From Botryllus schlosseri (taxonomy: Eukaryota), in contig CM119371.1 in assembly GCA_051294905.1 (NCBI GenBank), positions 11,100,001 through 11,164,000 on the forward strand: 64,000 nt of DNA. Reading direction: 5' to 3'. Below, piece after piece: positions 6,046-44,702 of this stretch (positions within the stretch are counted from its first letter, which is position 1; the number at the start of each line of letters is the position of its first letter). The position numbers and the translations under genes are program-made. Under the pieces are notes generated by a model, which saw nothing but the letters and a program-made list of their open reading frames with translations, made no database searches and was not told the DNA's origin.

Positions 6046-6087
6046 AAGGAGGATTAATCCTCCTAGAAATGAGGACGCATGGGAATC

Positions 6088-6795: not shown

Positions 6796-8007
6796 CAGTG
6801 GTTCTCAACGTCTTTTGTACCGATCCGCAAGTTATATTGAGATTTTATCCCTTATTTCCTAGATGCAAGATGTTGAAGGCATGTACATTAGTAGAATAAA
6901 TAAAACATCAGGTTTTGAACTGAAGCACAACTCCGTGAGGTAAGATTAGACCCGCAAACTTGTTCGATTTGACTTAAAGTTCAAGCTGTCTCCGGTGACA
7001 TGCGAGCGACTCGCTAAGTACGAGATGACTCAACAGCCGCAGAAGGAAATTTATGCGGCTGTGGACAGTTAATTCAATTAGTGTGTGTTGACTGCCGTCG
7101 ACATTAAAATTGAATTTACGAATTGACTCACGAATTTTGGAGATATTTTGATTAAATTTGATTTTTTTTCGCGCCGTGCGCGATTCAATCCGACTTAATC
7201 TTTCAATTTTAATGTAGTCGTAGCGCCCTTTCCAATCTGAGCCTCACAGTACAGATGCGAACAGTCGAGGAAAATGATGCATTCCATACAGAAATACCAA
7301 CTTGGAATCGTACGCTCTTCATGAAAGAAATTTGTTTCTGGCACGTTTGGGAAATACCAATATCTTTCCACTATACCGACAATCCTGAATGGAGGTGAAG
7401 AAATAACAACACGTAACAAATTGACTACAATAACAATTGGCCCACCCAAAGATTCATTATCATTTATAACTTTCCCTAAATTTTCGAAAACACTCCCTCC
7501 ATCACATCTACCGATGAATATGATCACATTGGCTGAGAAAGGATAAATATTTGTAAGTAATATGAGAAACTAGGAATATTAATGACGAATTTCGCTCGTG
7601 AAAATGAGACGCTTTGCGCGAACATAACCGATCCCAGTAACTATTCAGAACATGAGTACTTATGTAGTCATTTCGATGCGTTTTAGTAAGACGATATCAA
7701 AAGGTAGATTAGTCACCATTAATGGACATGGACACTGAACATTTCAACAGGGGTATTTTGCGTCCAGTTAGTTCATTACGACTGTGTCCTGGAAAGCGGC
7801 CGTAGGCTATATAAGTAATCCTAATGTAGCCGTGAATAGCAAAAAGGTTGACCACCCCTTCTCTAGTACTTACTTACTTACATACTTGTAAAAAACGGCT
7901 GTACACATTACATTTGGGGTTGATTTCAATTTTTAAGTTCAGCCGGTCCGCCACATATCTTTTGAAATTGTGCCGGTCCGCGAGGGGAAAAAGGTTGAGA
8001 ACCACTG
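6796..8007. mobile_element. hAT Charlie-like MITE with a nested element (~7000-7860) of the 40827 family
   Basis: CAGTGGTTCTCAAC...GGTTGAGAACCACTG; ATCTAGAC flanks both sides (3 extra nt on the left). Confidence 0.75.
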
Positions 8008-8489
8008 ATCTAGACTATTCGCCATCTCGAATTTCACCTCTAGTGATTGCTAGGGTCGGTATTCTTATACGGTCTGCAACAGACTTCTTCACGGGACGGA
8101 CAAAATTGTCCGACCTGTCGCCCGCGTGTTTGACATCCCTTCTTTACTGTTAGGTCGGTGCAGATCTGTAGTTGTGTGTTGTGGTCAGGACTGAAAGAAC
8201 ACTTTAAGGCCAACTCCCGTCCCACAAAACACTGCTCTGCGGCCCACAATAGGGTGATCGATGCGACTTCCGATGGTTGGCTTACTATATGCATCTGGTT
8301 TCTATGTGCTGTGGCTGTTAAATTTTGTGCGTGAATTCTGTCAATAGTATTTCTTCTTCCATATATCACTACAATATTTTTTATCCTCTATCAGCCCACG
8401 TGATCAAATTTGCGCTAGCGCTGGTGGAGATGATGACTTATAAAATGCAGGAAACATAATTGTACATCGCCGAGTCATGTTCAAGTCAC

Positions 8490-9388
8490 CAGTGTTGGGA
8501 TCAAGTCACTACCTTCGAGTCACGAGTCATTTCGAGTCATTGCACATTTTGACTCGAGTCAAGTCAAGTCAATCGATTTTCAAAGGTGACTCGAGTCAAG
8601 TCAAGTCAATCGATTTTTAGAGGTGACTCGAGTCAATTCGAGTCAAGTCAAGTCAAGTCACGAGTCAAGTCACAATTCAAGCCAAGTTGCCTTTTTCAAG
8701 TATGGGGCATGATAACGTCATTGCATTTTGCTAGCTGTCTGAAATACAGATTGGGTGGTCATTGATTTTGAACTGATGAACGAATATAGAGTTAAATATA
8801 CACGTAAGAAGGCGCTGTATCGCTCACATATACGTAGAACTGCTTAACCACAGTTTATAGTTACTAGCCAAAATAGAGAATGGATGCGAATTGGAAGCAA
8901 TACATTACCCATTTGCAAATCGATATGATATAATTCGACTCAGCGCCAATGGTTGAGGACAATAAAACTATATTCGAATTCAATTTCAATACAACAAGAA
9001 GTTTGGTTAAGGTAAAAACAGACATTAATTACTTCACTTTACGACAACGTAAGCTGTAAGCTTCGATCACTTCGTTTGCGATCAATTTATTTGTGAGGGA
9101 ACAATGGAGGCTCAGTAAAACGCACGATCATTAAGTGATTGGTCGCTCTCACGGTTACACCAGCGTTTCGCGAACAATCCGAACATATGCAAGATTCAGT
9201 GATTTTCATCGACATCGATTACTTGATGACTTGAAATTGACTCGTGAATTTTGCTCCGAGTCACGAGTCAATCCATATTTCGGATACGCCGAGTCAAGTC
9301 AAGTCAAGTCATTTTAGCAAAGTGACTCGAGTCAAGTCAAGTCATTCGAAAAAGGTGACTACTCATGACTCGAGTCATCCTAACACTG
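8490..9388. mobile_element. hAT MITE with GAGTC/AAGTC subterminal arrays
   Basis: TIR CAGTGTTGGGAT...ATCCTAACACTG, perfect TSD CAAGTCAC; family copies at 51357, 62225 and reversed at 15277. Confidence 0.9.
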
Positions 9389-10209
9389 CAAGTCACACAA
9401 TTGATACTATTCATGAGTCGAAATGCCGGTCCGAACCAGCACGTTATCACCCGGGGGTTTCCAACTTTTTATATAATTAGCACTATATGTAAATAGATCG
9501 CTTTGTTATTTCACTGTCGTTTAAATTTGAGGTCATGTCAGACTTTACGCACATTCAGGCTAGACCGCCGAATATTATATTTTCATTGGGTCTATGTTTT
9601 CATGCTATTGATTTTGTTGAAGTCGCCCGCACTGAGTTTTGCTACAGTGCCTTGGATACGGATCAATTCGAGTATCTCATACCCTAATAATTTGAAGGAA
9701 CTTGTTCATAGATGCAATTTTTTAGTGCAACTTTGTGAAAAATAAATGCAACTTTATACTGCAACTTTTTTGAAAAATAAATGTTCCTTTCCACGGATTT
9801 GACTGCAACAAAAACTTGCCCTACTGATTACTAAACAAATGGTCAGCATCTTAGCTCGGCATGGCCTATGTTTGAAGCTGATTAAGTTCAACATCTTCGC
9901 GATCTCGAGAAAAGAGTATTATCAGAAAGTGGTATCGTTGCTGACTAAAGCATCCAAACGGCCTTACCGACACTAGGAACGTTCGGATCTATCAACATTG
10001 TGATTACTATTGATCTTATTACAGTAAATGTTGGTTATTTTCATTTTTTGTGTAGGTATTGCGATGATAGGGTTACCCATACGAACATCAATACCTGAGA
10101 CACTAAGTCGCGCGAAACGCGCAGTAGAAGAATTTGAGCATATTTCCGCATTTTCTCCCGGACGCAGTTTACTAGGTGAAATCTCAAAAATGTCTATGGC
10201 AACCCTACC

Positions 10210-11985
10210 ACAGCCGAAGCTGATCAAGCTACAAATCGTCCATTTGGATATCGAATGAAGGTCTCGGACCCCGTCTATATAATGACTTCATAGATGTAGC
10301 CTCACAGAAATCGATAGCAACATGACTCGGCAGACGATAAGATCTATTAACGGATGAGATTTTCCGTGATCTAATGTAGATCGAACAGTATGCTATACGA
10401 ACATCTTATATCCGATATCATATATCGTGTGTTTTCACGCAATATCAGACACACATTGAACATTGACTCCAACAACAGTGCACATTTTAGGCATTTGTAC
10501 CCATTCCGATTATGCAATTCGGCGTAATCACTAGATTATTTCATTTAATGAAGTCACTGCGGTCTAGTTTCGTCGTGGCTATTAATACATCCTAATCTAT
10601 GCAGAATCAAATTTAGAAATTATTTCTTGATTTTCAGCATGATCTCACCCGCCTGATGGTGAACGATAGGTTAGAGATGGGATGTTTTGCACTCCAGTGT
10701 GACATCGTACTTTGTTGAATGGAATGTCACAATCCTCAAACACAACCGTATCGGACATGTCTGCACTCCGCCAAAATGTTTTCATCAAAACAAGATATAC
10801 TCCGAGTAGATGATGTCTAGAAAAGAAGTGCCGCAATGTTTTGCGTTACAACGTATCGTCAGTCAGCTGACATTCAATTGATTTTGCATGATACCATCTC
10901 AGTCCTTGGGAATCAATTCCATTCCAAATTATTTTGTTTCAGTGATGATAGGGTTACAATATTTAAGAATCGGGAAAGGAGATCAATTTTACGAAATCAA
11001 ATAACTTTGTTGATAAAAACTCAGCCGATTTCGCTATTTTTGCTGAAAAATTTGGTGGGTTGACTAAAAACAAGTCGACACAGTGGTCGAACCACGAATT
11101 TCCAAATTAGCGTCGTTTATGCCCATTTTCACTCGAATCTATCCATTATCATATCTCTAAAAGCTGTGAAAGAGACGAAATCTCAAAAAGGAGGACATAT
11201 TAGGTGTCCTTGGCGGACATTTTCAAAATCCTGAAAAAAGGAGGACGTATGGTAACCCTAAGTGACGAGGGTTGCAGATCAATAATATTGGATGAAATGT
11301 GCAATTTCCGTCTATATGCATAGGTCATAGTCATTAGCTTCATTAACCAACGCCAAAGGCGTCTATTTTGTAATCAGAGATAACCGTATTTGATGAGGTT
11401 GCAATGCGATAAGGCCGACTTAGCATAACGTGGCTCGGAAAAGATATATCTTGGTGATATATATTAAATCGTACGTCAAAATTGATGTACCATAACACCG
11501 AGCGAAACGCAGGAAATTAATTCCAAGTTTGATAACATTATATACAAATCCACGTAACTGATGCTTCATTTTCAGAGTCTACGATTTTAAGACTCTTCTT
11601 GTTGGTTTGCGGATTGGAATTTACGATAAACCATATGTAACGCAGGAACGCGACTGCGGTCCAAAATTATTATTTTTCATATGGTACAGATTAGCATAAT
11701 GTTCATTAACTTTATTTTCATATGTATACGCATTGCAACACTCTTTCAGCCTTCAATAATATAACAACAATGCAGTGGATGAGTCCATGCTGCATTTGAG
11801 AATTACAAAGAGACCTGCCAGTGAACGATTTTCCGAGTTATTTACTCAATTTTAAAGATAGAAAGAAGGATATATGTCTAAGTTTCTGGAGAAATTGCCA
11901 AAGTATGGATGTATGGAAAACAAATTCCATACTATACTACCAAATTCGAATACAACACGCGACTTGCATATTTCCATATTTCATA
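10210..11985 (-). pseudogene. Decayed ectodomain (LRR-like) region of pseudogene A
   Basis: Collinear with 32300-33870. Shared peptides FWRSADM...TGVxNIxSxxYxSPSxG and LRR-like ENRSLAGL; many stops. Confidence 0.4.
10949..11260. mobile_element. hAT Blackjack-like MITE
   Basis: TAGGGTTACAATA...TATGGTAACCCTA; TSD AGTGATGA/AGTGACGA. Confidence 0.8.
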
Positions 11986-11989
11986 CCCA

Positions 11990-12130
11990 GGAGAAACGAG
12001 TGGCGCAGTTGGTTAAACAGTGCAGTCACGGCACCTATGGACGTGGGTTCGATTCCCTGTTCTGATCAACTTCTACGTGTCGAAGGTTTCTCTGGGCTCC
12101 CCACGAACGACCTCACTACTACAGTAGTGC
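11990..12130 (+). mobile_element. tRNA-derived SINE (3' extent uncertain)
   Basis: Pol III A box TGGCGCAGTTGG (12001) and B box GGTTCGATTCC (12046); no canonical cloverleaf; interrupts the duplicated segment. Confidence 0.7.
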
Positions 12131-12639
12131 AGTGAACAGCCAAGACTGAAAGTGAACCGTGCTGCAAGTCGGCAGCAGAGACCACGATTTGGACGCATCG
12201 GAGCGAGAGAAAATGAAGAATGACTGCGAGATAGATTGAAAGACGTTCCCAAAAATACAATAGCCTAAAAACATTTGTTTGATATTCATGGTGTTTCGAC
12301 TACATTGCACGTTTTAGACCAGACCGATATTCTTTATGTTTGAATTCCATATTTACCGACTTGTGGCACGGCCCACCTATAGACTTTTTATAAGACACCG
12401 CGGATCACTTGGTGAAGAGGAGCGTGAAGATAAACTTTCAGCACTTAGGTAGCGATTCTGAAGTAGACCTCAGTCGGACTCGTACCCAAAACCCATCGTT
12501 GTTGCAGCTGCAGCTCACCACGGATTTTGAGGTATTTTGGAATAGAGGGATTTCGGTGCAGCCCTCGAGCGATCTGAAGTGTCGAATCCGGCCCGCGACG
12601 TCAGTTGCGTTTAACACCCCTGTACTAGACCTCGGTCTT

Positions 12640-14330
12640 CATCACTGTTTCAAATACTATGATAATTCCTGCTCATATTACCTCTCACAGTTGCTGAATG
12701 TACACTGAACACTTGTAGAGTGAAACGGGACTAGACATTTCCGAGTTATCAATATCGTTGGGAGATGTGCCAATTGTAATCAGCAACATCAAGTTTATAT
12801 TTGGGAATAGACAGATACTTTAAGAGTACGCTTTACAGTCCATACTCCTCATTGCCGTGGTGCTTCAAGACCTTTAAATATGCTGTAGTAAATTCCTACC
12901 GATAAAAACGTTTCCACAACCTGAAGATAACAAACGGCATGTATAGCAAAGCGTCACATAGGCCCGGTAATTCTGTAATGACTGGGACAACCGGTCAGTT
13001 ATCATCAGAAATGAAACATAAATCACCGCACATCGCTTGCCATTTACGTTGTACTTTCTATAAGTCATGACAACGTCACTAAAGGAATGCATCATTGCCA
13101 GCTCATCTGGCTTCGACCAGTTCTGTAGCACCGACTCACGAAGTTGTATGATGTCATCGCACAGGTTAACGTTACTGGTTACTGTCAACAAATTTCTGTA
13201 AAATAACAGGTAAAAAAATTGGATGTTTCTAGTGGATGAATCAAATGAGCAATTTGAATCCGACCACCGTCGTTGAGAAGATAACGATAATTTGAAGTAA
13301 TGAACGATTTTATTAAAACCGGACTATAATAAAATGGTAGCGGTCGGTGGAAATCATAATCACTTGTAAATCATAATATTCCGAACGACAAATGATAATA
13401 GTACATACGTGTATGTAGTCACCACCGATTCAGAGGCTTATACTTACTAGTTATCGAATAGAAACTCGTGATTTGTTGTCCATCGATTTGACCCATACCT
13501 AAATACGAGCTGACGCTACGGCAGTTGGAAGTTTGAGATGATCTACGAACTCTCTCAAGCCATGCTCGCGCCTAGTTTGAAGTAAATGTTTGCAGGAAGT
13601 CCGATATTCATTGATATATTTATCCGAATAAATGTTACTGCCGGTAGAATAGCATAAATATTCCAGGTTCACATCACTTTACCAGGAAAAGTTCCTTCAG
13701 ACCTCTCTACAGTAAAATTACGCGCGACTTTCTTACAGTTATACTAATATCAACTCAGCCTTTTTGGCATATGTATTGATAATACCAGCAGAACCGTTGC
13801 TCTCCACGTATAGTAAGGTTACATAGCGCTCAATATATAAGGGCTTAACATTGAAACTATATTATATAAATGTATAGTTCGGTTAATGTAGAAGAAAGTT
13901 CGGTTAATTCGATCACACCTAATCAATGATTTCCTAATCCGACACGATAGCGCAATTGTATAGCGTTCAGCTTGGTAATCGATACGTCGTTGCTTGAACT
14001 CCCCTGCCGAGTATGACGAAGATCTGATCTAATAACTGGTGTACGCGGCTTCCCGTCGGACTCATAACAGATTGGGATTGCATGGATGAAAAATACTGTT
14101 GCAGACTCTATGACAGACCTGGGCATTTTGCGGCCCGCGGGCCGCGATGCGACTCTGAGAGGTCCGCAAATATCCCTAGGAATTCAGCCTATAAATCATT
14201 TATTAATGTTAATGCCTGGACAAGAACTACTGTATAAACTCATCTGAAAATGCGTTCACCTCGAAGTTTAGTTTATTTATGTAGCGTGATTGCGTAACCA
14301 ACGTGCGTCGTGCGAGTAATCCAGGCCCTG
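12640..14330 (-). pseudogene. LGR-like GPCR pseudogene, 7TM remnant
   Basis: LQVIMISTDRYHFIIVRF (DRY at 13337-13345), TM4-like SLLQIIVIFSTTVVGFKLLI*, TM6-like LLYMPFVIFRLW; paralog at 33900-35330. Confidence 0.6.
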
Positions 14331-14649: not shown

Positions 14650-15118
14650 CGCCATGCTACACGTTATCATTGTTATCATGTTGATTAGAAATCTTTTTTA
14701 AATTTTGTTGCCAATATTTGTTGCGATCATATACCCAAAGGTGTCGCCGAAAGCGATATTTGTTATCATTACATTCGCCACCTCATATCATTGTGAAAAT
14801 GGATTTTCGGCATTAGTTGATAACAAATAGAAGGCGCGGATTTTCAAGACACGACCACACGTAGGCCTATTTCAAGAAATGCAGCTGCAGAATTCACTCT
14901 GAAGCAATTAATTTTCATCCAATTTTTATATAAATTTTATGATGTTATTTTAAAGAAAAGTCGTTTTGTTTCTGTTTATCACAAGTCCAGGCTTAATATT
15001 TGCACTAGACAGATGACTGTTGTACGATAATTGAACTATTAACTGAAACTTCGGGGGTCCAAGAGGGCTCGTGACAGTCAGCAAGAGGTCCGCGAAGACA
15101 AAAAGGTTGAGAACCACT
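14650..15118 (+). mobile_element. hAT Charlie/Buster remnant with transposase dimerization-domain fragment
   Basis: 14732-14830 reads YPKVSPKAIFVIITFATSYHCENGFSALVDNK (PFxTxYxCExGFS motif); ends AAGGTTGAGAACCACT. Confidence 0.7.
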
Positions 15119-15276
15119 AATATACGCATAGCACCACAATTTTGTCTTCAATAATATAGAACCATATACAGGGCGGCATTTAATAGTTGAATATGAACAG
15201 AAACCTGCCAATGAACGATTTTCCGACCTCTGAACTCGATTTGACGAATTTAGAAAAAAAAAGGATATATGTAAGG

Positions 15277-15980
15277 TATCGTGACTTGACTCGAGTCAGA
15301 CTCGAGTCACCTTTTTCGCATGACTTGACTTGACTCGAGTCAATTTGCCAAAATGACTTGACTTGACTTGACTCGGCGTATCAGAAATGTGGATTGACTC
15401 GTGACTCGGAGCAAAATTCACGAGTCAATTTCAAGTCATCAAGTAATCGGTGTCGATAAAAATCACTGTATCTTGGATATGTTCGGATTGTTCGCGAAAC
15501 GCTTGTGTAACCCGTGAGACTAAGAGCGACCAATCATTCAATGAGCGTGCATTTCACCGAGCTTCGATTGTTCTCTCACAAATAGATTGACTGCATACGA
15601 AGTGATCGAAGCTAGAAGCTTACGTTGTCGTAACTCTAGTGGTAAAGTAATAGAATAGCAAAATGTCTATTTCTGTTCTGTTCTGTTCTCATCTTACCTT
15701 AACCAAACCGAGTGTTTTATTAAAATTGAAGTCGAATATAGTTTATATAGTCCTTAACCATTGGCGCAGGCTCGAATGGTATCATATCTATTTGTAAATG
15801 GGTAACGTATTGCCTTATCAATTCGTTTTCCTATTCTCTCTTTTGGCTGGTAACTATAAACTGAGGTTATGCAACTACGTAGTTTAACAGTTCTACGTAT
15901 ATGTGAGCGATAAAGCGGCTTCTTGCGTGTATATTTAACTCTATATTCGTTCATCGGTTCGGAATCAATGACCAATGACC
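15277..15980 (-). mobile_element. Partial reversed copy of the GAGTC-array hAT MITE
   Basis: Reverse complement of ~8750-9370; truncated where the hATm foldback begins. Confidence 0.8.
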
Positions 15981-16161
15981 ACTAGGGTTGTCCAAAATTT
16001 GGAAAATCTCAAAAAGTCTCCGTGATTGTGTCTCATTCTATAGATTATTGATAAAAAACAACAATTAGCCTGAAAGAAGCTTACAGGAAAGCCGTTAAGA
16101 TTTCGGTCAAAGCGTTTGAAAGTAGCTGCTCAAGAATGGGCGTGCCACTGACCATAGAACG

Positions 16162-16588
16162 CAGAGATGAGCGGATTTGAAATTTCTATGTCCTAATCCA
16201 ATCCAAATCCGAACCTTCAAATCCAAATCCTAATCCTAATCCATAACTTTTACATATTAAAGTCCATGTCCAATCCTAATCCGATTCCAATTGGAAATTC
16301 AGAAAAAATACTAATTTATGCAATGGAGGGATTCGAAAATTTTCTTTCACAACCAACGATTTACCTGATTCAAGATAACTTAGTGACCTTAAGTACATTA
16401 ATAACTGATCTGAATAAAGTTTGTCGCCATTCGCCACACGACATTTCAATCTCCTAGAAAATAGGTCAATCCAATCCAAATCCTAATCCGTTCTGAAAAA
16501 AATGTCTAAGCCAAATCCAATCCAAATCCGACAAAATTTCACAAATCCTGTTTTTTCAAAACCTAATCCTAATCCATGCTCATCTCTG
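16162..16588. mobile_element. hAT MITE with AATCC/AATCCT arrays
   Basis: TIR CAGAGATGAGC...GCTCATCTCTG, perfect TSD ATAGAACG. Confidence 0.9.
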
Positions 16589-17053
16589 ATAGAACGGCGA
16601 GAAGACTAGTAATCAAATAACCACGCCTCTTGATTGACTAATCGGCTATGCTTCAATGACCACGGCAGCAGCAGCTTGCTGATCAGGTGTTCAAGAAGTC
16701 TGCTACCGGCGGGGATTCTGAGTGCGCATTGTTAGTAGTTTGGCAGGTGATGATTTAAGATTAATTCAGGACATGTTTAGGTACGAAATACATGATGAAC
16801 AAACAACACCTGCTTCACGGAAGATTTTACAGCATGACTGCTTCATTGTGAAGGAAACGGCTGAAGCCTACATGTCGTGTTTTCATCGAGAGAAAGCAAA
16901 CGCGCTTATGCAAGTGTTGAGGGAATTCACCGTTTCAGTACGGATCCACCATCAGTGAATACAAATATATAAACCTTAACAATGGCAATATACTTTGTGT
17001 GATCTTATTGGATCCAAGTTGTTGTATATAGTGGAGTATTGAAGGTTCTATAG

Positions 17054-17897
17054 CAGGGGTTGGCAAACTACGGCCCGCGGGCCGCATGCGGCCCGCAACA
17101 CCGTTTTGTGCGGCCCGCGAGAGTCTAAAGAAACTTATTAAAAATACTGATAAAATGCGTACTAAATATCGAATTAATTCAGGGACTAATTAAACTTTTT
17201 CTTAGTATATTTCACCATGATAATTCTAAGGTAGTGGTTCTCAAACTGGCGGGCGTACCACCCCCCCTTGAGGGCGTGAAGGCATCTGAATGGGGGGAGG
17301 GGGGGCGAAGCCAAGCACGACTGAAAAAAATTTTCGCGCTCCGCGCAATTCACAGCCACTTCCTCATTATCGCTCTGTATTTAGTCTGAATTTCATATCT
17401 AAAAATCTCTCATCCACAGTAGTAACCTTCCATGTCATCGAATTATCCGTTAGGTTTCCTAGCATCCTGGTTGCGTTTTCACATGACGATAAGGGGCCGC
17501 GAAATCTTTCACCATCGCAAGGGGGCGTGTCTTAAAAAGTATGAGAACCACTGTTCTAAGGTAAATACTACCAATATTAGTTTTATGTTTAATTTCTGAC
17601 GCGACCATCTCAAGGCCGCCAGAATCGAGACAACCGACTTTCATCTCTATAGTTTGGACGAATTGGTCATTGAGGTTGACCAGCCTATGAAATCTCGCCA
17701 CTGTTTCTGACGCGTGTATGCTATCATCAAAGCAATGTTTGGCTGGTTTTGAATAAGCATATCTATTATCTCCGTGTCCTCACTATCAAATACCAATATT
17801 GCATTTTGGTTTATAATCCCAATTTTATATAGTGCGGCCCGCGAATGGATTGAGATGTTGAATGCGGCCCGCGAGCTCAAAAGTTTGCCCACCCCTG
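17054..17897. mobile_element. hAT Charlie-like MITE (4093 family) with nested MITE 17232-17553
   Basis: Outer TSD TTCTATAG; inner TSD TTCTAAGG. Confidence 0.9.
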
Positions 17898-19699
17898 TTC
17901 TATAGGGATCGACTGAATCGGCCGGTTATGCTTGGCAGTTATCTTACAGCAAATTGAATTCACTTATAAGAGTTGTCAAAGTCCTTAACGATGCTGCAGA
18001 AAAGAGGTTTAAGGTAAGCACAGGCTATGCTGGATATGATATCCAAACTATGCTGGATACTATATGCAGCATAGTCTGTGCTTTTCTTTACACCTCTTTT
18101 TTGTGGGATCAATAACGACTTTAACATACCATATCCAGCACAGCCTGTGCGAGTGTGCGTACATTACCACCTTTTTTCTGCGTTATCATTAAGGACTTTA
18201 ACAACGCCTACAAGTGCATTCAATTTGTTGTAATCATCTGATAAGGGCCAAGCATAACCGGCTGATTCCACCGATCCCTAGGGCATTCAAAACGTCACCT
18301 ATATATGCTACAGCTTCAGCCCAATAAGATCACACAACGTATAGTGTCATTGTTAAGCTTTATATATTTATATTCACTGATGGTGGATCCGTACTGAAAC
18401 GGTGAATTCGCTCAACACTTGCATAAGCGCCTTTGCTTTCTCTCGATGAAGACACGACATGTAGGCTTCAGCCGTTTCCTTCACAATGAAACAGTCATGC
18501 TGTAAAAGCTTCTGTGAAGCAGGTGTTGTTTTTTCATCATGTATTTCGTACCTCAACATGTCCTGAATTAATCTTGAATCATCACCTGCCAAACTAGTAA
18601 CAATGCGCACTCAGAATCCCCGCCGGTAGCAGACTTCTTGAACACCTGATCAGCAAGCTGCTGCTGCCGTGGTCATTGAAGCATAGCAGATTTACCAATC
18701 AAGAGGCGTGGTTATTTGATTACTAGTCTTCTCGCCATTCTATGGTCAGTGGCACGCCCATTCTTGAGCAGCTACTTTCAAACGCTTTGACCGAAATCTT
18801 AACGGCTTTCCTGTAAGCTTCTTTCAGGCTAATTGTTGTTTTTGTAGGTCAAAATGTTCCGTGTTTTAGGTAAAAAAATAGCCTTACTTATGATTATATA
18901 GGCGAAGGGAGGTGGTGGAATAGCAAAACGAGGCGGATTAGCGAGTTACAGACCCGACAGAAAATCTATAATTATGCGAATCTCAGATTTTCGCAGCACA
19001 AACAGCTCTACCAGTAAATCTGATGGAGTGGGCTGAGAAAGGATGAACAATTAATAGCACTATATGCCAATACCAATTATACAGAAACAATCCAATACTG
19101 AATTTGAATTTTTTTCGCCCAATAACAAGTAAACGCTGACCCCAATAACATTAGAACCTGTTTTTCTAGTAGTCCTGAGAGGGCACTGACTAAGTACTGT
19201 TGATATTAATCTGTTTTTCAACCAGCTTGGTCATAATCGGCATTTTTTTAATTCTTTGATATACGTCCGGCCTCGATTTCACGTTTTTCACTGTGTGAAG
19301 TAACCATCGGAAAGTTGATTATCAATAATAAAATAATTCATTTTAGTACTCATAAAACGACGATGGATGTGTGATTGCAGTGGAGTAAGTCAAAGTAAAG
19401 CCGCCTGAGTTCCCATTAATAAAGTTTTTATTTCAATTATTGATTTCCGTATAATATGTTTTCCTTCATGGTGTTGTCAGTAGCACAATTCGGCAACGGC
19501 TCGTCTGCTAAGGAGTACGCACTATCCGGTGGACACGAATTTATGTCATCCGTCACGTCAGCGAATGAACACGCAGCGTTTTTGCGTTCAATTGCCTCAT
19601 CATCTTTCACTTCCGCGTAAGTTGCATGTTCTTCGTATAGTGCATTTTGTCTGCTTTCTTGGATTATTTGGTGTTGGCTTTTTTTTCTGAAAATCCGGC

Positions 19700-21560
19700 G
19701 AAGATACTTGAATCATACATTCATTTGACATTTTCACGTTGTTATGAAGTTCAATTATCATATCAGAATCATTCATTAACTGCACTTCTCAATATCGTAT
19801 GTATAAATCAAAGCTTCTTAGAGAATACCATTCATGTCGTATCACATCCATACGCGCAATTTAATAGTAGCTCGGCCTCAGCAGTCAAAGAGAATTTGAA
19901 TTTGGTATACAAAAATCATTGGTACCGATTTTTAGTGTAGCATGGACGTTGTTTTCCTGAGGATATATAGGGATTTGTGTGGTGTTAAAGGATTCCAATT
20001 TATCAACTTTCGAGACCCACCGATGCAAATATATGAGATAGAAGATATGTAATGAAACAGATACTAAAATATCAATTCCTGCAAATTATACTTACTTTTT
20101 ATATACCATGACAGCTGCCGCTAACAAAATAGTCGCAACAAGAACACATGGAACTATAACTCCTGGACTAAGCGGCGATGCGTCAAGATCTGAAAAAATT
20201 CAATGATTAGCCTTCGTGTCGTTTGGCATAGGATACTGCAGCTGCATCAGGCTAGTACCTGCTGAGTCATGGAAATACGGACACTCATACCCAAATTTTC
20301 TTCATATAATAAAATACCAAATGTATCAATAAAGTTATGTGATTACGAGTAATACCAAGTGATTTGACCAGATATTAGTTGATATATAATAGCGAAGTTG
20401 AAACAATTCGTTACAGTCGAATACTATATAACATTTGGTCTCATATGAATGACTTTTTTCTCCATCAATTAGGGTGCTTAAAGATTTACTAAGCACCCTA
20501 AAAGTCGGCGCCGCTATGGGAAATTTAACGATCCTCATAAATTTTCCCGAGTCTGCGCGCACTCAACAACTCATTATACGCGATCCCTCGGACTAGAGTG
20601 TGTAACGACTAAAAAAGGGCCATAACTTCCGCTTTTTTTTGTGCGCGCCACACTCTTTTCTGTGCATGCGCGCAGACTTTGTAAGCAGTGCGCCAACGCG
20701 CAGGCGAGCATTGCCTAAAAGTGGACTGTAGCTACCAAAAGAGAAATTTCGGAAATCAGAGTAAAAGCCGGATGTACGAACTATGGGCAGCTGTATGAAA
20801 AATGAAACAATAAGTTATCAAACCAGCAAATGAATCATGAATATATTTGTTTGTTAGTCAGCGAGGTCTATTGCTGAGTCCAAGTCGCGAACACATACAG
20901 TAAAGCGCATAAAAGATAAGCGCTTAGGCTACTGCACCACGACGAAGTATCATGGCTTTAATTGAAAAACTGTCATGCATGATATCATTCATTGATTGTG
21001 TCTGTCAGAAATTTCTCGAATCATTTGTATGAGTTGTTGGTGTGTTGACCTCTAGAGAACGTCGGAAATTGACTCTGGAAACCCCTGGTTCTCCGCGGAA
21101 CAGTAGTTAAAATAATACGTAACACATACTACCATTGAACGCGGTTATTCTTGCTCCCGTTGTTGATATTCCGGCAGAAGCTGGAATATAATCTCAGATC
21201 AATATCAGATGACATGCCTTAACTTTCCTCAAGAGGGGAGGAGTAATAATACCTCATAGTAGTAGTCAATCAGTCGAAATTGCGATTTACAAATTACAAG
21301 AAGATGAGTTATAAAAACAAGCTGTATATATAGAGTGATATTACAGTGGTCACGGATGATCTTATTTGAAAACCAATATCCAAGTTTTAGGCGCTTTACT
21401 AGATTGGCTCAAGCGAAAGTTTCGGCCTGAATACATGGAAACATGAATTTGTTAAACGATGCATGTTAGCATATTTTTGCAGGAAAGCATAGGTGTTAGG
21501 CAGTGGTGTCAAACTAATTTCCAATTATTTTCACAGCTACACGGAGTATGCTTTCCATCT
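19700..21560 (-). pseudogene. LGR-like GPCR pseudogene B, hinge + 7TM remnant
   Basis: TPLPNTY/SCKNMLTCIV hinge (~21510-21450; DNA homologous to 2030-2230), ANLV (TM1-like), LVLLVIT...WYFIIY (TM3-like, ~20360-20305), VLA*CSCSIL (TM4-like) and further hydrophobic runs; interrupted by small TEs. Confidence 0.5.
20875..20946 (-). mobile_element. Degenerate tRNA-derived SINE head
   Basis: Minus strand TGGTGCAGTAG (A box-like) and GTTCGCGAC (B box-like). Confidence 0.35.
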
Positions 21561-22320
21561 ATGCCATATTAAGTTGTTTCCCATGAAGTTAGATGACAGT
21601 CACTAGATCACGGGTTCCCAAACTGGAGTCCACTGACCTCTAGGGTCTCCATTAGAAAGCATTTTGGGGTCCGTGATATCCTTGATGGATTTTAGGGAAA
21701 ATGATAAGCACATATATGTCATGTATCATAAACTGTACCGATCCGGTATGCTTAATGTTGCTGCCTATATTGTGTTAATTTAATTTAAAATAAAATCATA
21801 TTACGTAATAGAAAGCATGCGGTTTAGTTCTGGAAAGACAACCACAGCCCACTATTTTAATCTGATTACGTTGAAAAAGTATCTCGTACCACTTTTGGTC
21901 ACTTCTATAAAAATTATATCCCCAAGGGAACCAATTGGCGAAGCTGGACTAAGTCCGAACAGTACGAGGCGCAACTCCCTCTTCTCCTGTCGTGGATATG
22001 TAGTGCGCTGGTCGTCAACCCAACTTGTCTCTGTTTTTATGTTTTCACCACTTTTTTGAAGCTTCTTTATTGTAGTATGTCAATTGTTTTTTCAATTTTT
22101 TGACAATGGTGTATTCTACATTTTGTTCATTCTTCAACATCCACAACAACAACTGCAATTTGCTGTACTAGTACAGTAGTTGAGCAACATAAATATTACA
22201 ATTGTAGACAATATGTTTATTGAGTTTCAGGAGAAATTTTGGCAAAGGTCTGCAGAAAATAATAATTTCTTTAAAGGGGTCTTTGGCAACAAAAAGTTTG
22301 GAAACCACTGCAATAGATTA

Positions 22321-23340
22321 CACTGGTCAACAATATGAAATTTTTTTTTTAGGCAGAACAGCTGAGAGCCGTTTCTGGGGTTTTTGAGGTTGCTGATTAC
22401 GAATATCACATTAGTTTTGTCAGATTAGCTTTCTTTCAGAACATATTTATACCCGTAAAAAAGCCCAAAATTACTGTATTTACCCTTAAATATTTCACTT
22501 GGTAGAAAGAAAATCGTAGTTTTTCCTAATTTATACTGCGCATAAATGACTAACTGACTATGAAGAACCCCAATGTCAGTCTCAGTCCTTCTATCAATAT
22601 TAACATGGCATGATGCGAAATATTTCTTTGTCAAAAAAGCAGTTTTTCAAGCCTAAAAATTGTATTTTTTCAAAACGGAAATTCATCTTCTGTATCAGTT
22701 GGTCATTCTACCAAGATTGAAGAGGAGCATAAACTATAAAATTTGTCCATGAAAGGCTTAACTACAATACTCATATGTGTGTCATTTCTTTTGACAGGTA
22801 AATGGATAATTTTCCACTGAGTCAACAAAGTGGGTATACCTAGTAACCCTATCAAACGAGAAGCTGAAATCTGGTATCTGGTATATTCGAATAGCGATGA
22901 AAGATTCCAATTTCACATTAGAAGGAGTGCACAGCATGTAATTTCTCCTAAGATGTAGTAAATGAAACTTTCTAGCTGATCACAAAGCACCCAACTACAT
23001 ACAGTTGGTCCGAAAATTCGTATCTGCATATCGAAAACTTGTAATAAACATGAGCATAAAAGTTCACGTCCTGTTCAGTCATCTTGATATATTTCCCGAT
23101 CATCATCAAGTAGCCGTCGGCGAGTGGACGGGGCGTCGACGAAGTGGGCGGGCAAACAGAAGCCAATAATCTTGATTGGTTGAAGCCCGTAATAATAAGC
23201 TGCTGATTGGCTGAAAGACCGCTTGGTGAACACTGCTGGTAACGATTTTTGTGTGCTATTGTGCCGTCGTTTCTGTTGGTGGCATTGCAGACATGATATA
23301 TTGCCTTTTTTAATGTTGTCATCGAGAGTCCATAGTACAA
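22321..23340. mobile_element. Degraded DNA transposon with CACTGG terminus (Chapaev-like?)
   Basis: Begins CACTGGTCAACAAT; a similar terminus CACTGGGCAACAAT is at ~35764. Other end not established. Confidence 0.3.
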
Positions 23341-24789
23341 CATTGCAAAGTTTTATCTACCTGCAGAATGTGTATAACAGTGTTGCTATGTATTGCACAT
23401 GTCCTCTCGCTAGTTGAGATACGAATAAACAAGATGCATGCATCTTGGTACCTTCGAGCTTCCCAAAACTTACTGGCAAGCCGTACTTGTTATGTCTAAG
23501 TCGACGTATCACCAATAACCGAACGCATATTACACTTTTTATTCACGATTGAATGAAGGTATTAACAAAAGATTATTAAAATAGTACGCTGCAGGATCAG
23601 TGTTGCATTGTCAGGCGCAAGTAGCAGATTACAGGATTTGATTAGGGTTGACTTCCTGCTGTCTCTAACTGTCTTCCTATGCTCTTCCACAGCTTGAAGC
23701 AGACTGTCTCTCTGTTGTTCGTTGTCAGTCAAGATTGCAGCTTGGCTTTACACCTCGTTCTGCGGCGTCATTAACGACTTTGACAGAACTGATGTAGCAG
23801 CTCATCCTGGTGTAGGAATCTGATAAGTTCCAAACATCAACCGGTCGAGTACCGCGATCGTGAGCCACGCCCCAGAGCATTCAAAAAGATCAAATATGTA
23901 CCACGACTGACCAAAGTAGTGTCCTTGTTGATCTGTAAAGTTGCACTCAACGAGGCCGGGCCCCTCCTGAAACTTGGAAGTACGCTCTACCTGCAGGAGC
24001 GTCTTTGCCATATTTGCTCGGGTTTCAATGCTTTCACTCGACGAAAACAAGGCATATACAGCGGTTTCCTCCACGATATACCAGTAATACTTCAAAAGCT
24101 TTTGTAAAGCAGCTTTGGAGACTTGTTTATCATGTTCATTGTAACTCAACATGTCCTGGGTGAATCTCAAGTCATTGCCGGCTGCATCACGATCGATGCT
24201 GGAATCAACCCAGGGAAGTAGGCTATATAAAAGTCAATTAAAAAAATTGAAGCGATGCTGTAGTTCCACTTCTTCAGATTCGTAAAGTCACTTATAAGCC
24301 CACATGAACATCTTCTGAGCATACAGAATTGTGCCCATCCATCTTGCATGATGTGTTGCAGCTGGTTTGTGATAATGTAGGCCTATATCTTCACCTGTAC
24401 CGATAAGAGCAAGAGCATTAGTCACATATTGTCTGTAGTCATCCCGTGTGAAGAAATCTTTTGTATTCAGTAGTAGCTTGAAGTTATTAACTGTTATTGC
24501 TGCTCGTTCTTTAAAACATATAGGAATAGTCAGAGTATTGAATTGCTGTTTTCTGTCAAGACTGCTCATGCTCTTCTTAAGAAGCGCATACAATGTGATC
24601 ACGCCATCTTTCGTGCAGGTTTTGAAGTGATCACACCACATCTGATTTCTGCATTGTCGCAATGCTCGCCATTTCACCCTGTCATTACATCATCCAGCAC
24701 CACATTACATTAGTAGGGGTTGACTGAGCACAATGCTCTTTCTGATGCAGAAAGTATCTCATTACTCTCGTATAGTAGGTAATCTCGAG

Positions 24790-26955
24790 CAGAGTTGGAT
24801 CTATTGTAATTTGTAATTGTAATTGAATGTAATTAATTACATTTTTCAATGTAATTGTAATTGAAGCATTTTTATTTTGTGTAATTGTAATTGTAATTGT
24901 AATTTGACAAAAATTTTGCTCAATTACAATTTCAATTACATTAAATTGCTATTGAGACCGGACAAGCACAACATAAAATAATTGACTTATAATGCATTCT
25001 CTTTAAATGTCGACAAGGAATTTGGTGGATCCATTCGCGGAAGACCTTGACTGCGCCCTTGCGGGCGAAGTTTTTTTTTAATTTTTACCGCTATGCTGGC
25101 CTCGGCTGCCATTGTATACAATTCTTAGATTACTAACCAACGGATGGATTCGCAACACGTGACTCGCGATTGAATACGCCGAGAAGCCAACTGCTGAGCC
25201 GGCTAAATGCAGCAGAATTGATAGTCCCATAGCTGGCGATCCAAGCGTCGAAATTTGATATGTATGGTCCGAATCGAAAGCTAGTGTCGCAGTGATTCCG
25301 CAATAAAAGTATATTTCCAGGCAATGGTACCATCCCAAAATAGTCGTGAAAGTCTGGGAATCGGCATTGTTCTCAACAATAGCTGGGCGTAATTGGTAAT
25401 TGTTGTGGTCATGCTGCTGCAGCGCTCTCACTTTTCAGAACAGTCGGCCTTAAACGGCTATTTTGGAGCAGTTACATTGCCCTGACGAGATTTTATTTTG
25501 TATTTTCGGAATTAGTACATCAATAGATTACGATAAAGACCAGATGCATCAAATTTGGACGCATGGATCGCCAGCTGTAGGACTACAAAGTTTGCTGCTT
25601 TTAGCCGGCTCTGCAGTACGTTTGTCGGTGCATTCATTCGCGACTCACATTTTGCGCATCTATCTATAGATAACTAACCTACGGATAGAAGGGCAAGACG
25701 AGAGTCACGGTCGAGTGATGCGACAACGGCAGATTTGTTGTCGCTTCATAGCATGAAACAGGAGCGTAATTGCTAATCCCATAGATGACGACCCGAGCGC
25801 TCAAATTAAATAAAGTTGATCTTATTTGAAAGCTACAGTCGCGCTGATTCTGATAATATACATTAAATTTTCATCAACGCAATGGAACCACCCCGAAATA
25901 GCCTTCAAAATATGAAAATCGGCATTGTTCTAAAACAATTGCAACGGCGCAGCACAATGACCATAACAACGGTCCGTGCGTGGTTGCGATTGTTTAGAAC
26001 AATGCCGATTTTCATATTTTGAAGGCTATTTCGGGGTGGTTCCATTGCCTTGATGAAAATTTAATGTATATTATCAGAATCAGCGCGACTGTAGCTTTCA
26101 AATAAGATCAACTTTATTTAATTTGAGCGCTCGGTTCGTCATCTATGGGATTAGCAATTACGCTTCCGTTTCATGCTATGAAGCGACAACAAATCTGCCG
26201 TTGTCGCATCACACGACCGTGACTCTCGTCTTGCCCATCTATCCGTAGGTTAGTTATCTATAATCTATCCGTGGGTTGGCAATCTACAATACGATTTCAG
26301 ATCACGATGCTGCATCGTTATTTAGTCTGGCTAACTAACCAGACCACTGGATATTATATAACGTCTTATCTGACAAAGCACGGTTTTGTTTTTACTCCTC
26401 ATCCTAATTCCTACGTCCCTCGATAAAAATAATATTATTTCTTTAATTATATGCTATATACGCGAATCCAACACGTGCATATATTATAATACTTTTTCAA
26501 CGACATACTGCACCCTATCCTTAATCCTAACCCATAGGAAATTAGGTAAATAACATTTTACATTTCCAATTACGTGAGCCATAATTACCTAGCATATAAA
26601 ACACGCTTATATTACGTCACAATGACATCTTACATAGCATACTATGTACGCACACGCACATAAACGCATTTATTACTACACAATCTGAACTAGACTTGAA
26701 TTGTTGTTAAATACGACGCTACGGTTGTCAAGGAGCACGGTTGAATTTACGATTATTCAATTACATGTTCAACAGCAGCAATTGTAATTGTAATTGTAAT
26801 GTAATTGAAGCATGCAAGGAGTAATTGTAATTGTAATTGTAATTTGATATTTTTAGCATGTAGTAATTGTAATTGTAATGTAATTGAAACATTCATGAAA
26901 GTAATTGTAATTGTAATTGTAATTGAACTGAAATAATGTAATTGATCCAACTCTG
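24790..26955. mobile_element. hAT MITE with (TGTAAT)n arrays, inserted in the hATm element
   Basis: TIR CAGAGTTGGATC...GATCCAACTCTG, perfect TSD ATCTCGAG. Confidence 0.9.
25125..26286. mobile_element. Foldback MITE (TAGAT-ACTAACC termini) with a younger relative nested at ~25667-26260
   Basis: Inner ~600-bp near-perfect palindrome centred ~25965; outer imperfect palindrome with similar termini; related copy at ~31217-31690. Confidence 0.75.
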
Positions 26956-27515
26956 ATCTCGAGCCACAGATGTAATCGCAAGTATATCCGACCAAGTACG
27001 GTGCTGCTCAGATTTAGATCTTGTTCTTCGCTGCGGCATGTGTACAATCTTTCGCCGTTTCGCCTCTGCCATGCCTCCAATATTGTTGCTCCAAATCATA
27101 AACTACTGCTATCGATTCTCAAGGAACACGTGTTACGGTACTACTAATGACTCATCAACCCACAACGCGCGCTTGTACAGAACCACACCCCCTACTAACA
27201 TACTCGACCTCAGCAACGCAGACTTTCAATTTAGTAATGCGAAGCACCCGAATCAGAGTCAGCTGTTTCAGTAATCATTGAAACTTAGCCGATTACCCAA
27301 TCAAGAACCGTGCTTTTGTGATTGCCAGCCTTTTCTCAACTCTGCCGTCGGTGGCCCGCCTACTCTTTACCAACGACTTTCAAACGCATTTAGACAAATC
27401 TTACCGACTTTCTTGCGGCTTCTTACAGGCCCATTATTGTCTTTTAACAATATTCTACAGAATAAGCTATGGATACGCAGTATTCCTAACATTTTCCAAA
27501 TTTTGAACAACCCTA

Positions 27516-27790
27516 GTGTTTATACAAAATGGAACCGGCAACAATATTTGTAATACTTGTTTTTGTCGGGATCATATCGTCAAAAGATGAATGTGAACTT
27601 GCAAAAATGTTATGACTTACCAGCAGTGCTAGAAATTCCGTGACTTGTACTCGATAGCATCGATACTCCTTTGGACTGTGTTGTGGACTGTGTTGTGGCT
27701 GAAAAAAGTTTGCATGTTTGTTCAGAGACATCTTGGATTGTACTTTAGCGGCATCCAATGTAAAGATAACAAGTACCTATTAAATTGAAG
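27516..27790 (-). pseudogene. Ser/Thr-rich segment of pseudogene B
   Basis: Homologous to 2900-3170 (DDMIPTKTSITNIVAGS vs DDVIPTKTHITNAVTGS); frameshifted. Confidence 0.45.
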
Positions 27791-27828
27791 TATTTGAAGA
27801 AAATCCAGAGCAATCGATCAAGAATAGT

Positions 27829-28232: not shown

Positions 28233-28539
28233 AGAATAATTTGCTGGAGTAGTTGCCAACCAAAACATTTCAAGATTAGAACATAACTTTATTTATAGCT
28301 GCACACTTTCTTTTCCAAATTGGAGATTAAAAGAAGGATTACTGAGTTCAAGAAAAGTTGAAAAATGAATTAAATTACGACTTGAAAAATAACAGAACAA
28401 AGATCAAGTTTTATTCATATCAAATCAGGGCTGGATATACTTTGAAAGTCACATTTCCGCATAGCCTGTCGATCATTACTGACAATACCAGCGAAAGTCG
28501 TCTAGCTCGATGTAGATCGCCTTCAAGTCAGATTTTTCT

Positions 28540-41947: not shown

Positions 41948-42504
41948 ATCTAGACTGATAGACTAAATACAAATAATGTGGTAACCAGACATTGGGTAAT
42001 CGCTATTAGTAATCGTAATCGATGACGACGATTACAGAATTTTCAAGTAATCGCAATCGATTACATTCGAAAAAAATCCGAGGTAATCGTAATCGTAATC
42101 TACTACTTCCCATATCTAATTGATTTTTTTTTGTGAAAGAACGATTACTTTTTGTTTGCACAAGGACAATGACGTAAACTGAATATTCTTGAACAAGAAT
42201 GAGATAATATAGCACGTTAGCGATAGCACAAACATCTGTTTTCAAACGCCACTGACCCATTATTACGTCGTCTGCTCGTGATTGCGTAAGAATTACCCAC
42301 ACGTAGTAAACAGACATGCGATGGACATTGTAGTGTGATTGTAAGAACCCCCCCCCCCCCGTGGTGTATATCAGGTTTCAATACTCTACAGAGGCCACTA
42401 CCTCGCAGCAGATATTGATCACCACTCTGCGTATAGTTTCAAATAGTAACTTATGTATTGATGTTTGGTTGTGCTTCGTTAAACGCAGTTTACCGTTGCT
42501 GCTA

Positions 42505-44702
42505 CATGATGAACAATCAGCAGCTGCTTCACAAAAACGACTAAAGCATGACCGCTTTATTGTGAAGGGAACCGCCGTAGCCTATATGCCTTGTTTTCTA
42601 CGAGAGAAAGAATAGGCGCTTATGCATGTAGCGACGAATTCCTAGTTTCAGAAAGGATATACCATTATTTAATACAAATATAAAGCTTAACAATGACACT
42701 ATAATTTGAGTGATCTTATGGGGCTCAGGTTGTAGTACATAGTTGAAGTTTTGAAAGCTCTAACGATCGGCTGAATCAGCAGGTTATGCTTGGCACTTGA
42801 AAGATGCTTGCATCAAAATGTATTCACGTGCAAGTGTTGTCAAAGTCCTTGATGATGACGCAGAAAAAAGGTGTAAAAGTAAGCACATACTATGCTGGAC
42901 ATGATATGTCAAAGTCCTTAATAATCGCGCACAAAAGGTGTGTAAAGGTAAGCACAGACAATGCTGCATAGTACATAGCATCCAGCATAGTTTGTACATC
43001 ATATCAAGCATAGTCTGTGCTTGCATTTAAACCTCGTTTCTGCGGCATCATTAGGGACTTTGAAAACACTTGCACGTGAATTCAATTTGCTGTAAACATC
43101 TGATAAGTGCCAAGCCTGACCGTCTGATTCAGCCGATCCCTAGAGCATTCAAATTATGTACTACAACCTGAGCCCAATAACATCACACAAATTATAGTGT
43201 CATTGTTAAGCTCTATCTTTGTATTCAATGATGATATAGCCTTTCTGAAAGTAGAAATCCGTCGCTATTTGCATAAGGGCCTATGCTTTCCCTCGTTGAA
43301 AACAAGGCATATAGGCTACGGCGGTTTCCTTCACAATAAAGCGGTCATGCTTTAGACGTTTTTGTGAAGCAGCAGTTGTTTGTTCATCATAAAGTTCGTA
43401 CCTCAACATACCCTGAATCAATCCTAAATCAATATCTGTCAACCTAGATACAATGCGCTTTCAGAATCGCCGCCGGTAGCAGACTCCTTGATCACCTACA
43501 CAGCAAGCTGCTGCTGTCGTGGTCATTGAAGCATAGCAGATTAGCCAATCAAGAGCCGTGGTTTCGTGATTGCTAGTCTTCTCGCCGTTCTATGGTCGGT
43601 GGCACGCCCATTCTTCGGCAGCTACTTTCAAACAGACTTGGACAACTAGAAAATTTTCAGCTTTTCTGAATTAGATTAGAATTAGAATTAGAGCTCCACA
43701 GTTTTTTTCAAACTAGATTAGAATTAGAGCTGCACAGTTTTTCCAAATTAGATTAGAATTAGAATTAGAGCTACACAGCTTTTTCAAATTAGATTAGAAT
43801 TAGAATTAGAGCTACTAAGCCTTTTCCAGATTAGATTAGAATTAGAATTAGAGCTATACTTAGTTCGCAAAAACTTGGAAATTGAATGAAATTGTATATG
43901 GGAAATGAATACAGCAAAATGCAGTTCACATCAAATCACAGAGCGTGGTGCAAAAGGCCGTGAGGCGATAGGCGCCACATAGTTTTGTTTAATAAACAAC
44001 AACAATAGTGCATTCCCATAAACATGAGAATGGTTAACTTCTGTACACCAAGCTTGGCTCGAATTTTACTATACTTTAATAAAATATTATTCTTTTGTGG
44101 TAACCATGGGCATCGCCCATGTTAGTCAGAATGGCAAAGTACTAACGTAAAGTTTTAGAAACTAGAATGCTGTTCGCAGACTACAAGCAACTCTAGCAAG
44201 CTTTATTCATCATAATATCTATTATGACTGCACGGTGTAAGTAATGCGATGGCGGCTTGGCACTGGATTTCCCTGCGCAAGCGGGATATTCTTTTTAACT
44301 CACTGCAATAGTGCAATATGCCTCGGACAAAGAGGCATTTTCAGGAAAACAATAATTAGATTAGAACTAGAACTAGAGAATACGGACATTTGACAAATTA
44401 GATTAGAATTAGAATTGGAGCATACGAACATTTCACGAATTAGATAAGAATTAGAATTAGAGCATGGAAGCATTTCACAAATTAGATTAGAATTGGATTA
44501 CTGGCATTTCGCTCTAATTTAGTGAAATTAGACAACTAGAATTATCTAGTTGTCCAAGTCTGCTTTCAAACGCTTTGCACGAAATCTTAACGGCCTTTCT
44601 GTGAGCTACTTTCAGGCTCAGTGTCGTTTTTTATCAATAATCTATAGAATAAGACATTACAACGGAGGATTCGTAAGATTTTCCAAATTATGGACAACCC
44701 TA
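42505..44702. mobile_element. hATm-derived foldback element, copy 2
   Basis: Arms ~42505-42900 and ~43010-43390 are inverted; the right arm continues to TIR ATTTTCCAAATTATGGACAACCCTA; homologous to 15983-18843. Confidence 0.8.
43633..44562. mobile_element. hAT MITE with ATTAG/AATTAG arrays
   Basis: TIR CAGACTTGGACAACTAGA...TCTAGTTGTCCAAGTCTG, perfect TSD CTTTCAAA. Confidence 0.9.

Follow-up and report, generated by a model that had tools for sequence, protein, structure and literature searches.

Inverted duplications that combine the end of a transposon with a piece of its transposase gene raise the question of whether they are dedicated silencing loci, in the manner of Mu killer of maize, or copies of mobile elements that share the same anatomy. 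Such a structure, the foldback copy denoted E1, occupies positions 15983-18843 of a 64,000-nucleotide stretch of the Botryllus schlosseri genome (GenBank assembly GCA_051294905.1, contig CM119371.1, positions 11,100,001 to 11,164,000), which is referred to below as the window and to which all coordinates apply. The window contains ∼40% G+C, is rich in repeats and harbors spliced genes. E1 is most probably a decayed insertion of an abundant family of ∼1.65-kb, non-autonomous foldback elements with two 5' ends that derive from a hATm-like transposon and were mobilized in trans. E1 resembles Mu killer in form but there is no evidence of dedicated silencing by this locus.

When the later insertions of transposable elements of the miniature inverted-repeat type (MITEs) are removed, the segment 16054-18843 aligns with its own reverse complement at 86.9% identity over 1528 columns. 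In the outer arms, the identity is 96.6% between 16054-16170 and 18727-18843, and 93.9% between 16589-17030 and 18302-18743. This self-comparison places the inverted duplication where the initial annotation had put it, and the short spacer reported near 18100 between the facing arms corresponds to an 89-bp loop (Table 1). Both arms have the composition described previously, except that arm A is interrupted by three MITEs, all with perfect 8-bp target duplications, and arm B is 71 bp short. The loop combines a non-parental apex of short templated repeats with a partial copy of the arm end, the third in the element and likewise inverted (∼62 bp, 18066-18128). The sole direct repeat in the MITE-free self-comparison is a unit of ∼70 bp at the centre, and the arms are not made of tandem repeats. 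The complete element would be ∼1.65 kb long, and E1 itself (771 + 89 + at least 714 bp) is over the 800-bp limit for MITEs as used in the available text of PMC6004678.

Table 1. Coordinates of the foldback copies, the insertions they carry and the related or adjacent features in the window
Feature	Position	Strand	Description
Arm A of E1	15983..18040	+	771 bp without MITEs; TAGGGTT terminus intact, 5' subterminal region, transposase fragment
5' terminal and subterminal part of arm A	15983..16738	+	∼320 bp without MITE; 73% identity to 27515-27192
Decayed transposase fragment of arm A	16743..18034	+	corresponds to P0001 residues ∼587-740, MITE-interrupted; 44% identity over 107 and 52% over 31 residues
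Later hAT-type MITE in arm A	16162..16588		427 bp; 8-bp target duplication ATAGAACG; not in arm B
Later hAT-type MITE in arm A	17054..17897		844 bp; 8-bp target duplication TTCTATAG
MITE nested in the 844-bp MITE	17232..17553		322 bp; 8-bp target duplication TTCTAAGG
Asymmetric loop of E1	18041..18129		89 bp; same centre in copy E2
Arm B of E1	18130..18843	-	714 bp, no MITEs; outer 71 bp including the terminus gone
Single-pass membrane protein gene, last two predicted exons	20189-20096, 19686-19437	-	points toward arm B
Sister hATm-like pseudo-element	23634..27515	-	internally deleted; in an intron of a host gene
Foldback copy E2	42503..44702	-	opposite orientation to E1; terminus intact at 44702, other arm cut at 42503
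hAT-type MITE in E2	43633..44562		930 bp; 8-bp target duplication CTTTCAAA

The arms join two distant parts of a transposon. The 5' part (∼320 bp) matches the corresponding region of a related, non-foldback pseudo-element in the window, hereafter the sister element, at 231 of 316 positions (score 247, compared with 38 for the best of 100 shuffles), and this homology stops ∼90 bp upstream of the sister start codon (27099). The rest of the arm is 70% identical (312 of 444 positions) to the region encoding the C-terminal part of the sister transposase, and the peptides DDLRLIQDM..ETA and KVLNDAAEK align with residues 587-740 of P0001, a full-length transposase of 775 residues. The proposal that a hATm 5' end was fused by deletion to the C-terminal part of the transposase is thus well supported. 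No close intact parent of the arms was found: the frame of arm A gave no match among 19 longer candidate proteins, which is weak evidence, and of 151 fetched transposases, two match arm B and one matches an E2 arm, with 39-40% identity at best; overall, the best amino-acid identity to the arms is 39-44%.

P0001 was identified via the C-terminal frame of the sister element, to which it is 62% identical (a single match among 344 candidates), and 6758 related proteins were found for it with E values of 0.001 or lower. A structure model based on 80 aligned sequences, out of 151 retrieved proteins (mean predicted local distance difference test score, pLDDT, 89) has Hermes as the best structural match (E 1.2e-07); there are 12 matches at E up to 0.001, and all 11 among the matches listed are Hermes structures. 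The residues D396, C425, H428 and E729 of P0001 are invariant across the 80-sequence alignment. Pfam yielded no significant match for the frames of the pseudo-element or for P0001, and Rfam none within 15000-28000. Tested through this modeled relative, the source of the coding fragment appears to be a hAT-type DDE transposase. Membership of the family in hATm is likely, given the terminus, the fold and transposase motifs typical of that group. The terminus TAGGGTT, which is found at 15983, 44702 and 27515, shares six of seven letters with TAGGGTG, the hATm terminus according to the available text of PMC6004678, where some hATm elements are described as having terminal inverted repeats (TIRs) of 417-575 bp.

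The window contains a second copy of the foldback, E2, which went unremarked in the initial annotation. Aligned in the reverse orientation, E2 and E1 share 79.7% identity across 1286 columns, which begin at the very first letter of the terminus and include the centre, and the asymmetric centres of the two copies are identical at 170 of 202 positions. The flanks of the two termini are unrelated, the nested MITEs are different, and both copies lie outside the segmental duplication of the window described below. The shared asymmetric centre, combined with the unrelated flanks and different MITEs, is explained by a foldback that formed once and then dispersed. All four arms of E1 and E2 have frame-breaking lesions in common when compared with the sister element. 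The cut end of E2 at 42503 abuts a piece that is also present beside a long interspersed nuclear element (LINE) at 39687-39834. A separate candidate explanation of E2, as a part of the segmental duplication, was ruled out by its orientation, position and flanks.

The arms of each copy resemble each other more than they resemble the arms of the other copy. In the 382 columns that contain all four arms, 36 sites are informative; at 34 of these the arms pair by copy, at 2 by side and at none crosswise (p about 1e-8 against a 50:50 expectation). Between copies, the arms are 18-22% different along the whole length. The two arms of E1 differ at 17 of 489 outer sites versus 46 of 211 inner ones (Fisher's test, p 2e-13), and those of E2 at 22 of 186 and 30 of 203 sites, with no significant gradient. 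Given the one origin of the centre, the arms were homogenized after the two lineages split, and the pattern seen in these four arms suggests conversion between arms as the underlying process. The 844-bp MITE was rejected as the sole cause of the divergence of the inner arms of E1 because both copies of its target duplication already have the divergent letters of arm A.

The family to which E1 and E2 belong is abundant. Four of the 24 listed sequencing runs were compared with 17906-20400 at 80% likeness, namely, the DNA run X4, the run X15, the kind of which is not on record, and the RNA runs X21 and X23, of which 6% and 3%, respectively, were read. Among the 24 runs, none with a recorded library type is a small-RNA library, and the run index names no RNA run that contains the locus, which argues neither way. 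Across 11 arm bins, DNA contig depth relative to the flank reference, which is the median of 16 bins, reaches factors of 236-4447 in X4 and 78-2084 in X15, with three bins (18830-19081, containing the junction and another repeat) left out; summed contig depth does not equal copy number, and at this level of likeness, related non-foldback elements add to it. At position 18061, in the non-parental apex, the X4 depth is 20,493 versus a flank median of 39. At 18843, 53 contigs from X4 and 44 from X15 extend into the terminus missing from E1; 12 X4 contigs continue through an E2-like centre. The E1 and E2 lineages are ∼20% apart, and their divergence is later than the formation of the centre. Thus, with at least two lineages diverging after that event, mobilization continued after the foldback arose, and because it kept spreading, the foldback is better viewed as a passenger of its parent than as a single silencing locus. 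The test put forward in the initial annotation, whether family activity stopped when the foldback arose, accordingly turns out negative, given that the foldback itself amplified and diversified afterwards. The abundance and the terminus-bounded homology suggest that the element with two 5' ends was mobilized in trans.

The same runs bear on where the arms became alike. Seven sites, among those listed within the aligned part of arm B (many more exist), were examined for the depth of alternative letters in the family. At 18667 and 18748, the best sampled sites at which both E1 arms are unlike E2, the E2 letter accounts for 42-87% of the family depth, and at 18714, for 21-24%, whereas at sites private to arm B (18576, 18693 and 18737), the other letter makes up 97-100%; site 18597 fits neither class. 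The letters shared by both E1 arms thus look like traits of a lineage rather than local changes, which suggests that homogenization took place in mobile lineages and not solely at the E1 locus.

At the truncated end of arm B, a single X4 contig covers 18816-19113 with zero differences and thus confirms the truncation for that sample; the sample is possibly the assembly's own, and the contig is hence no independent support. In the bin 18914-18997, depth is 9.7 in X4, contributed by this junction contig alone, and 0.45 in X15; the region beside arm B may be polymorphic, and the gap in contigs proves nothing by itself. At the other end, E1 is inserted in a copy of a ∼910-bp MITE family (15968-15982; other copies at 8488-9400 and 62223-63132), the rest of which is missing. 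Immediately left of the E1 terminus, there is a 7-letter duplication that may be an old excision footprint.

The related, longer pseudo-element noted previously beside E1 is indeed homologous to the foldback but is itself internally deleted and only 70-76% identical to the arms. Residues ∼110-436 of the transposase were not found in 23634-27515, and further insertions lie at ∼24800-26957. Of the 1554 21-mers of E1, none occurs in this element without a mismatch, and 10 are found when up to two mismatches are allowed. Being deleted, divergent and free of perfect 21-mer matches, it is neither the parent nor a likely target of the foldback, and by sequence comparison is best classified as a sister; the same counts speak against silencing of this neighboring hATm element by E1. 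The paralogous segment at 2904-3141 is without the pseudo-element. Its 3' terminus and target duplication were not found in the window, and an inverted match of its 5' region at 23112-23216 scored 38, compared with 37 for the best shuffle. The sister element also encloses two adjacent palindromic elements, at 25665-26262 (arms 96-100% identical in 70-column blocks) and 25121-25664 (∼70-84%), with related sequence at 31210-31684.

Native E1 is predicted to fold with 630 pairs across the centre and with longest perfect stems of ∼106 and 90 bp (a prediction made with no shuffle control), so that a transcript through E1 would form a long hairpin. To this extent, the previous inference of double-stranded RNA (dsRNA) holds, but no read-through from the host gene was seen at the low RNA depth available. 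The exons of this host gene next to arm B splice in frame and are predicted to encode a transmembrane segment and a tyrosine-containing cytoplasmic tail. An AATAAA signal follows just after the stop (19427-19432), RNA reads reach ∼19250-19330, and the gene ends 450-590 bp from arm B. The last exon has reads in both RNA runs, at a depth of 3-6; at this exon depth, and in other individuals that possibly lack E1, RNA depth is zero in both runs at 18914-18997 and 19082-19249.

Both RNA runs contain reads on both strands of the arm, and X23 includes four reads with an apex-like loose end (5 mismatches in 30 to the E2 apex). The arm depth is ∼8 and 26, compared with 5 and 4 for the host exon, that is, an excess of ∼2-6 times, far below the hundreds to thousands reached by DNA. 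Given that only 4 of 120 and 7 of 311 compared reads are at least 95% alike, and that allelic difference is high here, these reads are unassignable to E1; nine X21 reads enter the terminus that E1 lacks and so come from other copies. As a weak test of editing in double strands, A>G and T>C changes were compared between RNA and DNA, and RNA shows no excess. RNA of a sister, non-foldback transposase is present on one strand, sense as judged by the host exon (60 and 34 reads with loose ends in X21, 9 and 8 in X23), and these loose ends have 3 and 1 mismatches in 30 to the sister pseudo-element; this family is too diverged from the arms to serve as a test of silencing. Reads aligned at 18065-18099 lead to RNA that is close to the pseudo-element at 23706-23790, and the sister family may still be expressed. 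Hairpin RNA is probably produced from some copies of the foldback family, and made incidentally.

The origin of the family can be envisaged as follows. An internal deletion, apparent from the homology of the arms, brought the 5' end next to the final fifth of the transposase gene. Repair of a break near codon 740, which the templated apex suggests took place by folding back or by copying of the 5' half, would then have created the complex centre, removed the 3' end and left a ∼1.65-kb element with two 5' ends. Transposase supplied in trans presumably moved this element many times, giving rise to lineages ∼20% apart. Within each lineage, the two arms would have stayed alike through arm-to-arm conversion or repair, which in E1 acted most recently on the outer two thirds. 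Once inserted, E1 acquired its three MITEs, all in arm A, and arm B was shortened at its end; in this state, E1 is no longer mobile as a unit.

Several observations weigh against this scenario. No copy with both termini and a target duplication, which is 8 or 9 bp long in hATm transposons, was seen, and both copies in the window are without one end; a degenerate terminus pattern had no matches in metagenome contigs or in viral contigs; and the mobilizing transposase was not found among the 151 fetched proteins and the 19 longer candidates. The depth on which the abundance estimate is based is inflated by related non-foldback elements, and arm conversion is deduced from four arms only. Furthermore, in the available text of PMC10368747, the Hermes complex with two left ends has an arrangement unable to support transposition, so that a hAT element with two 5' ends would not be expected by default; the existence of hATm TIRs of 417-575 bp implies that like ends may suit the hATm group. 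If E1 and E2 had each formed in place, their arms would also be similar within each copy, and the window does contain a segmental duplication, but separate events are not expected to yield the same complex asymmetric centre, the apex is found at high DNA depth, and the two copies, being in opposite orientation, outside the duplicated blocks and with no common flank, do not look like a duplicated segment; local formation or duplication is hardly credible. That the structure is an artefact of assembly has a negligible probability: although none of the contigs listed spans the whole element, the arms are 3.5-22% different and carry different insertions, the independent copy E2 has the same centre, and the arm B junction is crossed by a contig without any difference.

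The suggestion closest to the initial annotation, that E1 was transcribed from the host gene or from its own ends and silenced the neighboring hATm family, as Mu killer does in its own setting, appears very unlikely. The host gene does point at arm B from a distance of ∼450-590 bp, arm B retains an inverted CCAAT motif that is common to E2 and the sister element, and the outer arms of E1 differ at only 17 of 489 sites; nevertheless, the interval between the gene and arm B is devoid of RNA (in shallow data from other individuals), the neighbor shares no perfect 21-mer with E1, 1.3 kb of MITEs break up arm A, and E1 is but one of many copies. A distributed version, in which the family is the same but transcripts of many copies give dsRNA and small RNAs that throttled or eliminated the parent subfamily, adds a function and does not alter the origin. 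This possibility is unlikely rather than far-fetched. It is consistent with the killer-like anatomy, the strong predicted hairpin, the arm RNA on both strands in two runs together with the four apex-like reads and, as weak evidence, with the failure to find a close intact parent. Against it, the family amplified and diverged by ∼20% after the foldback had formed, the arm RNA is modest compared with the DNA excess, the weak test for editing showed no excess of A>G or T>C, and sister transposase RNA is present on one strand, albeit from a family too diverged to be a target. In its fullest form, this line of thought, that a killer-type hairpin with two 5' ends turned into a transposon, was multiplied into hundreds or thousands of copies by the very transposase to which it is complementary, had its arms matched by conversion and, as a self-limiting source of genome-wide dsRNA, ended the parent subfamily in the germ line of an animal, is improbable. 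The evidence fits best the view of E1 as one decayed member of a dispersed foldback family.

Elements with long inverted arms are common in the window. One at 53819-56707 has 411-bp inverted arms at 98% identity that enclose a ∼240-bp tandem array, and another at 57305-60829 has arms of ∼270 bp at 77-88%. Relatives of the 844-bp MITE from arm A are located at 4086-5194 and 44895-47084, the latter including three tandem 188-bp units (45270-45833) that are 97-99% identical. The segmental duplication, in direct orientation, involves 1-14325 and 21189-35216 (67-78% identity) and includes, at 6090-6296 and 28823-29029, a cysteine-rich exon that belongs to a minus-strand gene for which Pfam gave no match. 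The minus strand also contains a classical hAT transposase remnant at 30044-31030 (Dimer_Tnp_hAT, E 0.00045, below the cut-off) and a reverse transcriptase frame of a non-long-terminal-repeat element at 38014-39703 (441 residues, RVT_1, E 5e-08).

In maize, Mu killer and Ac killer each combine an inverted transposon 5' end with a part of the transposase (Wang et al., bioRxiv 10.1101/2020.01.07.897926; PMC13635294), an anatomy that E1 matches, as the initial annotation had recognized for Mu killer, and Ac, like the presumed parent of the foldback, is a hAT element. The maize killers are single loci with demonstrated dsRNA, small interfering RNA and heritable silencing of a near-identical active element (bioRxiv 10.1101/2020.01.07.897926; PMC13635294); the foldback, in contrast, is an old family with many dispersed copies, and its genome is of animal type, its gene piece is C-terminal whereas theirs are N-terminal, and no close active target was found. 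A literature search, with Repbase outside its scope, produced no direct precedent for palindromic families of hAT or hATm elements that have a left end on both sides, or for foldback-derived endogenous small interfering RNA in animals, although either may already be described. If the amplified hairpin did end its parent, killer-type silencing, known from single maize loci, would be linked to the life cycle of an animal transposon.

In its mode of evolution, the foldback seems to work like the extended-arm copies of Galileo, by analogy. In the 2RT copies of Galileo from Drosophila mojavensis, long arms arose from internal sequence copied end to end, with the structure TIR1-F1-F1-TIR2 (Marzo et al. 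2013, PMC3573991); the arms of one copy are 98-100% alike, there are several subfamilies, and recombination and conversion were proposed (PMC3573991). Both systems are non-autonomous, with internal sequence recruited into long arms and, in the present case, no intact transposase, and both form dispersed, multicopy families in which arms of the same copy are more alike than arms of different copies. Galileo, however, belongs to the P superfamily and has internally repetitive TIRs, whereas the parent of the foldback is hAT-type and the arms lack tandem arrays, which also sets them apart from Foldback (FB) elements in the strict sense, with arms of internal tandem repeats; in addition, the foldback arms contain transposase codons, and the whole element consists of the arms and an 89-bp loop. 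The family accordingly exemplifies, for the little-studied hATm group, how the arms of a non-autonomous DNA transposon are extended and homogenized, which is a known process. The shared apex makes it possible to separate arm-to-arm conversion from common origin, and the full set of copies could provide conversion rates along the arm. The likeness to hATm includes the TAGGGT terminus, a transposase relative with a Hermes-like fold and the long symmetric ends found in some members of the group (PMC6004678), although, unlike the short hATm MITE of that study, the foldback has arms that include coding sequence. Hermes, the best structural match of the related transposase P0001, has unlike left and right ends and an antiparallel complex with two left ends (PMC10368747), whereas the foldback family has apparently spread with two like ends, which suggests that a hATm transposase, unlike Hermes, can move an element with two 5' ends.

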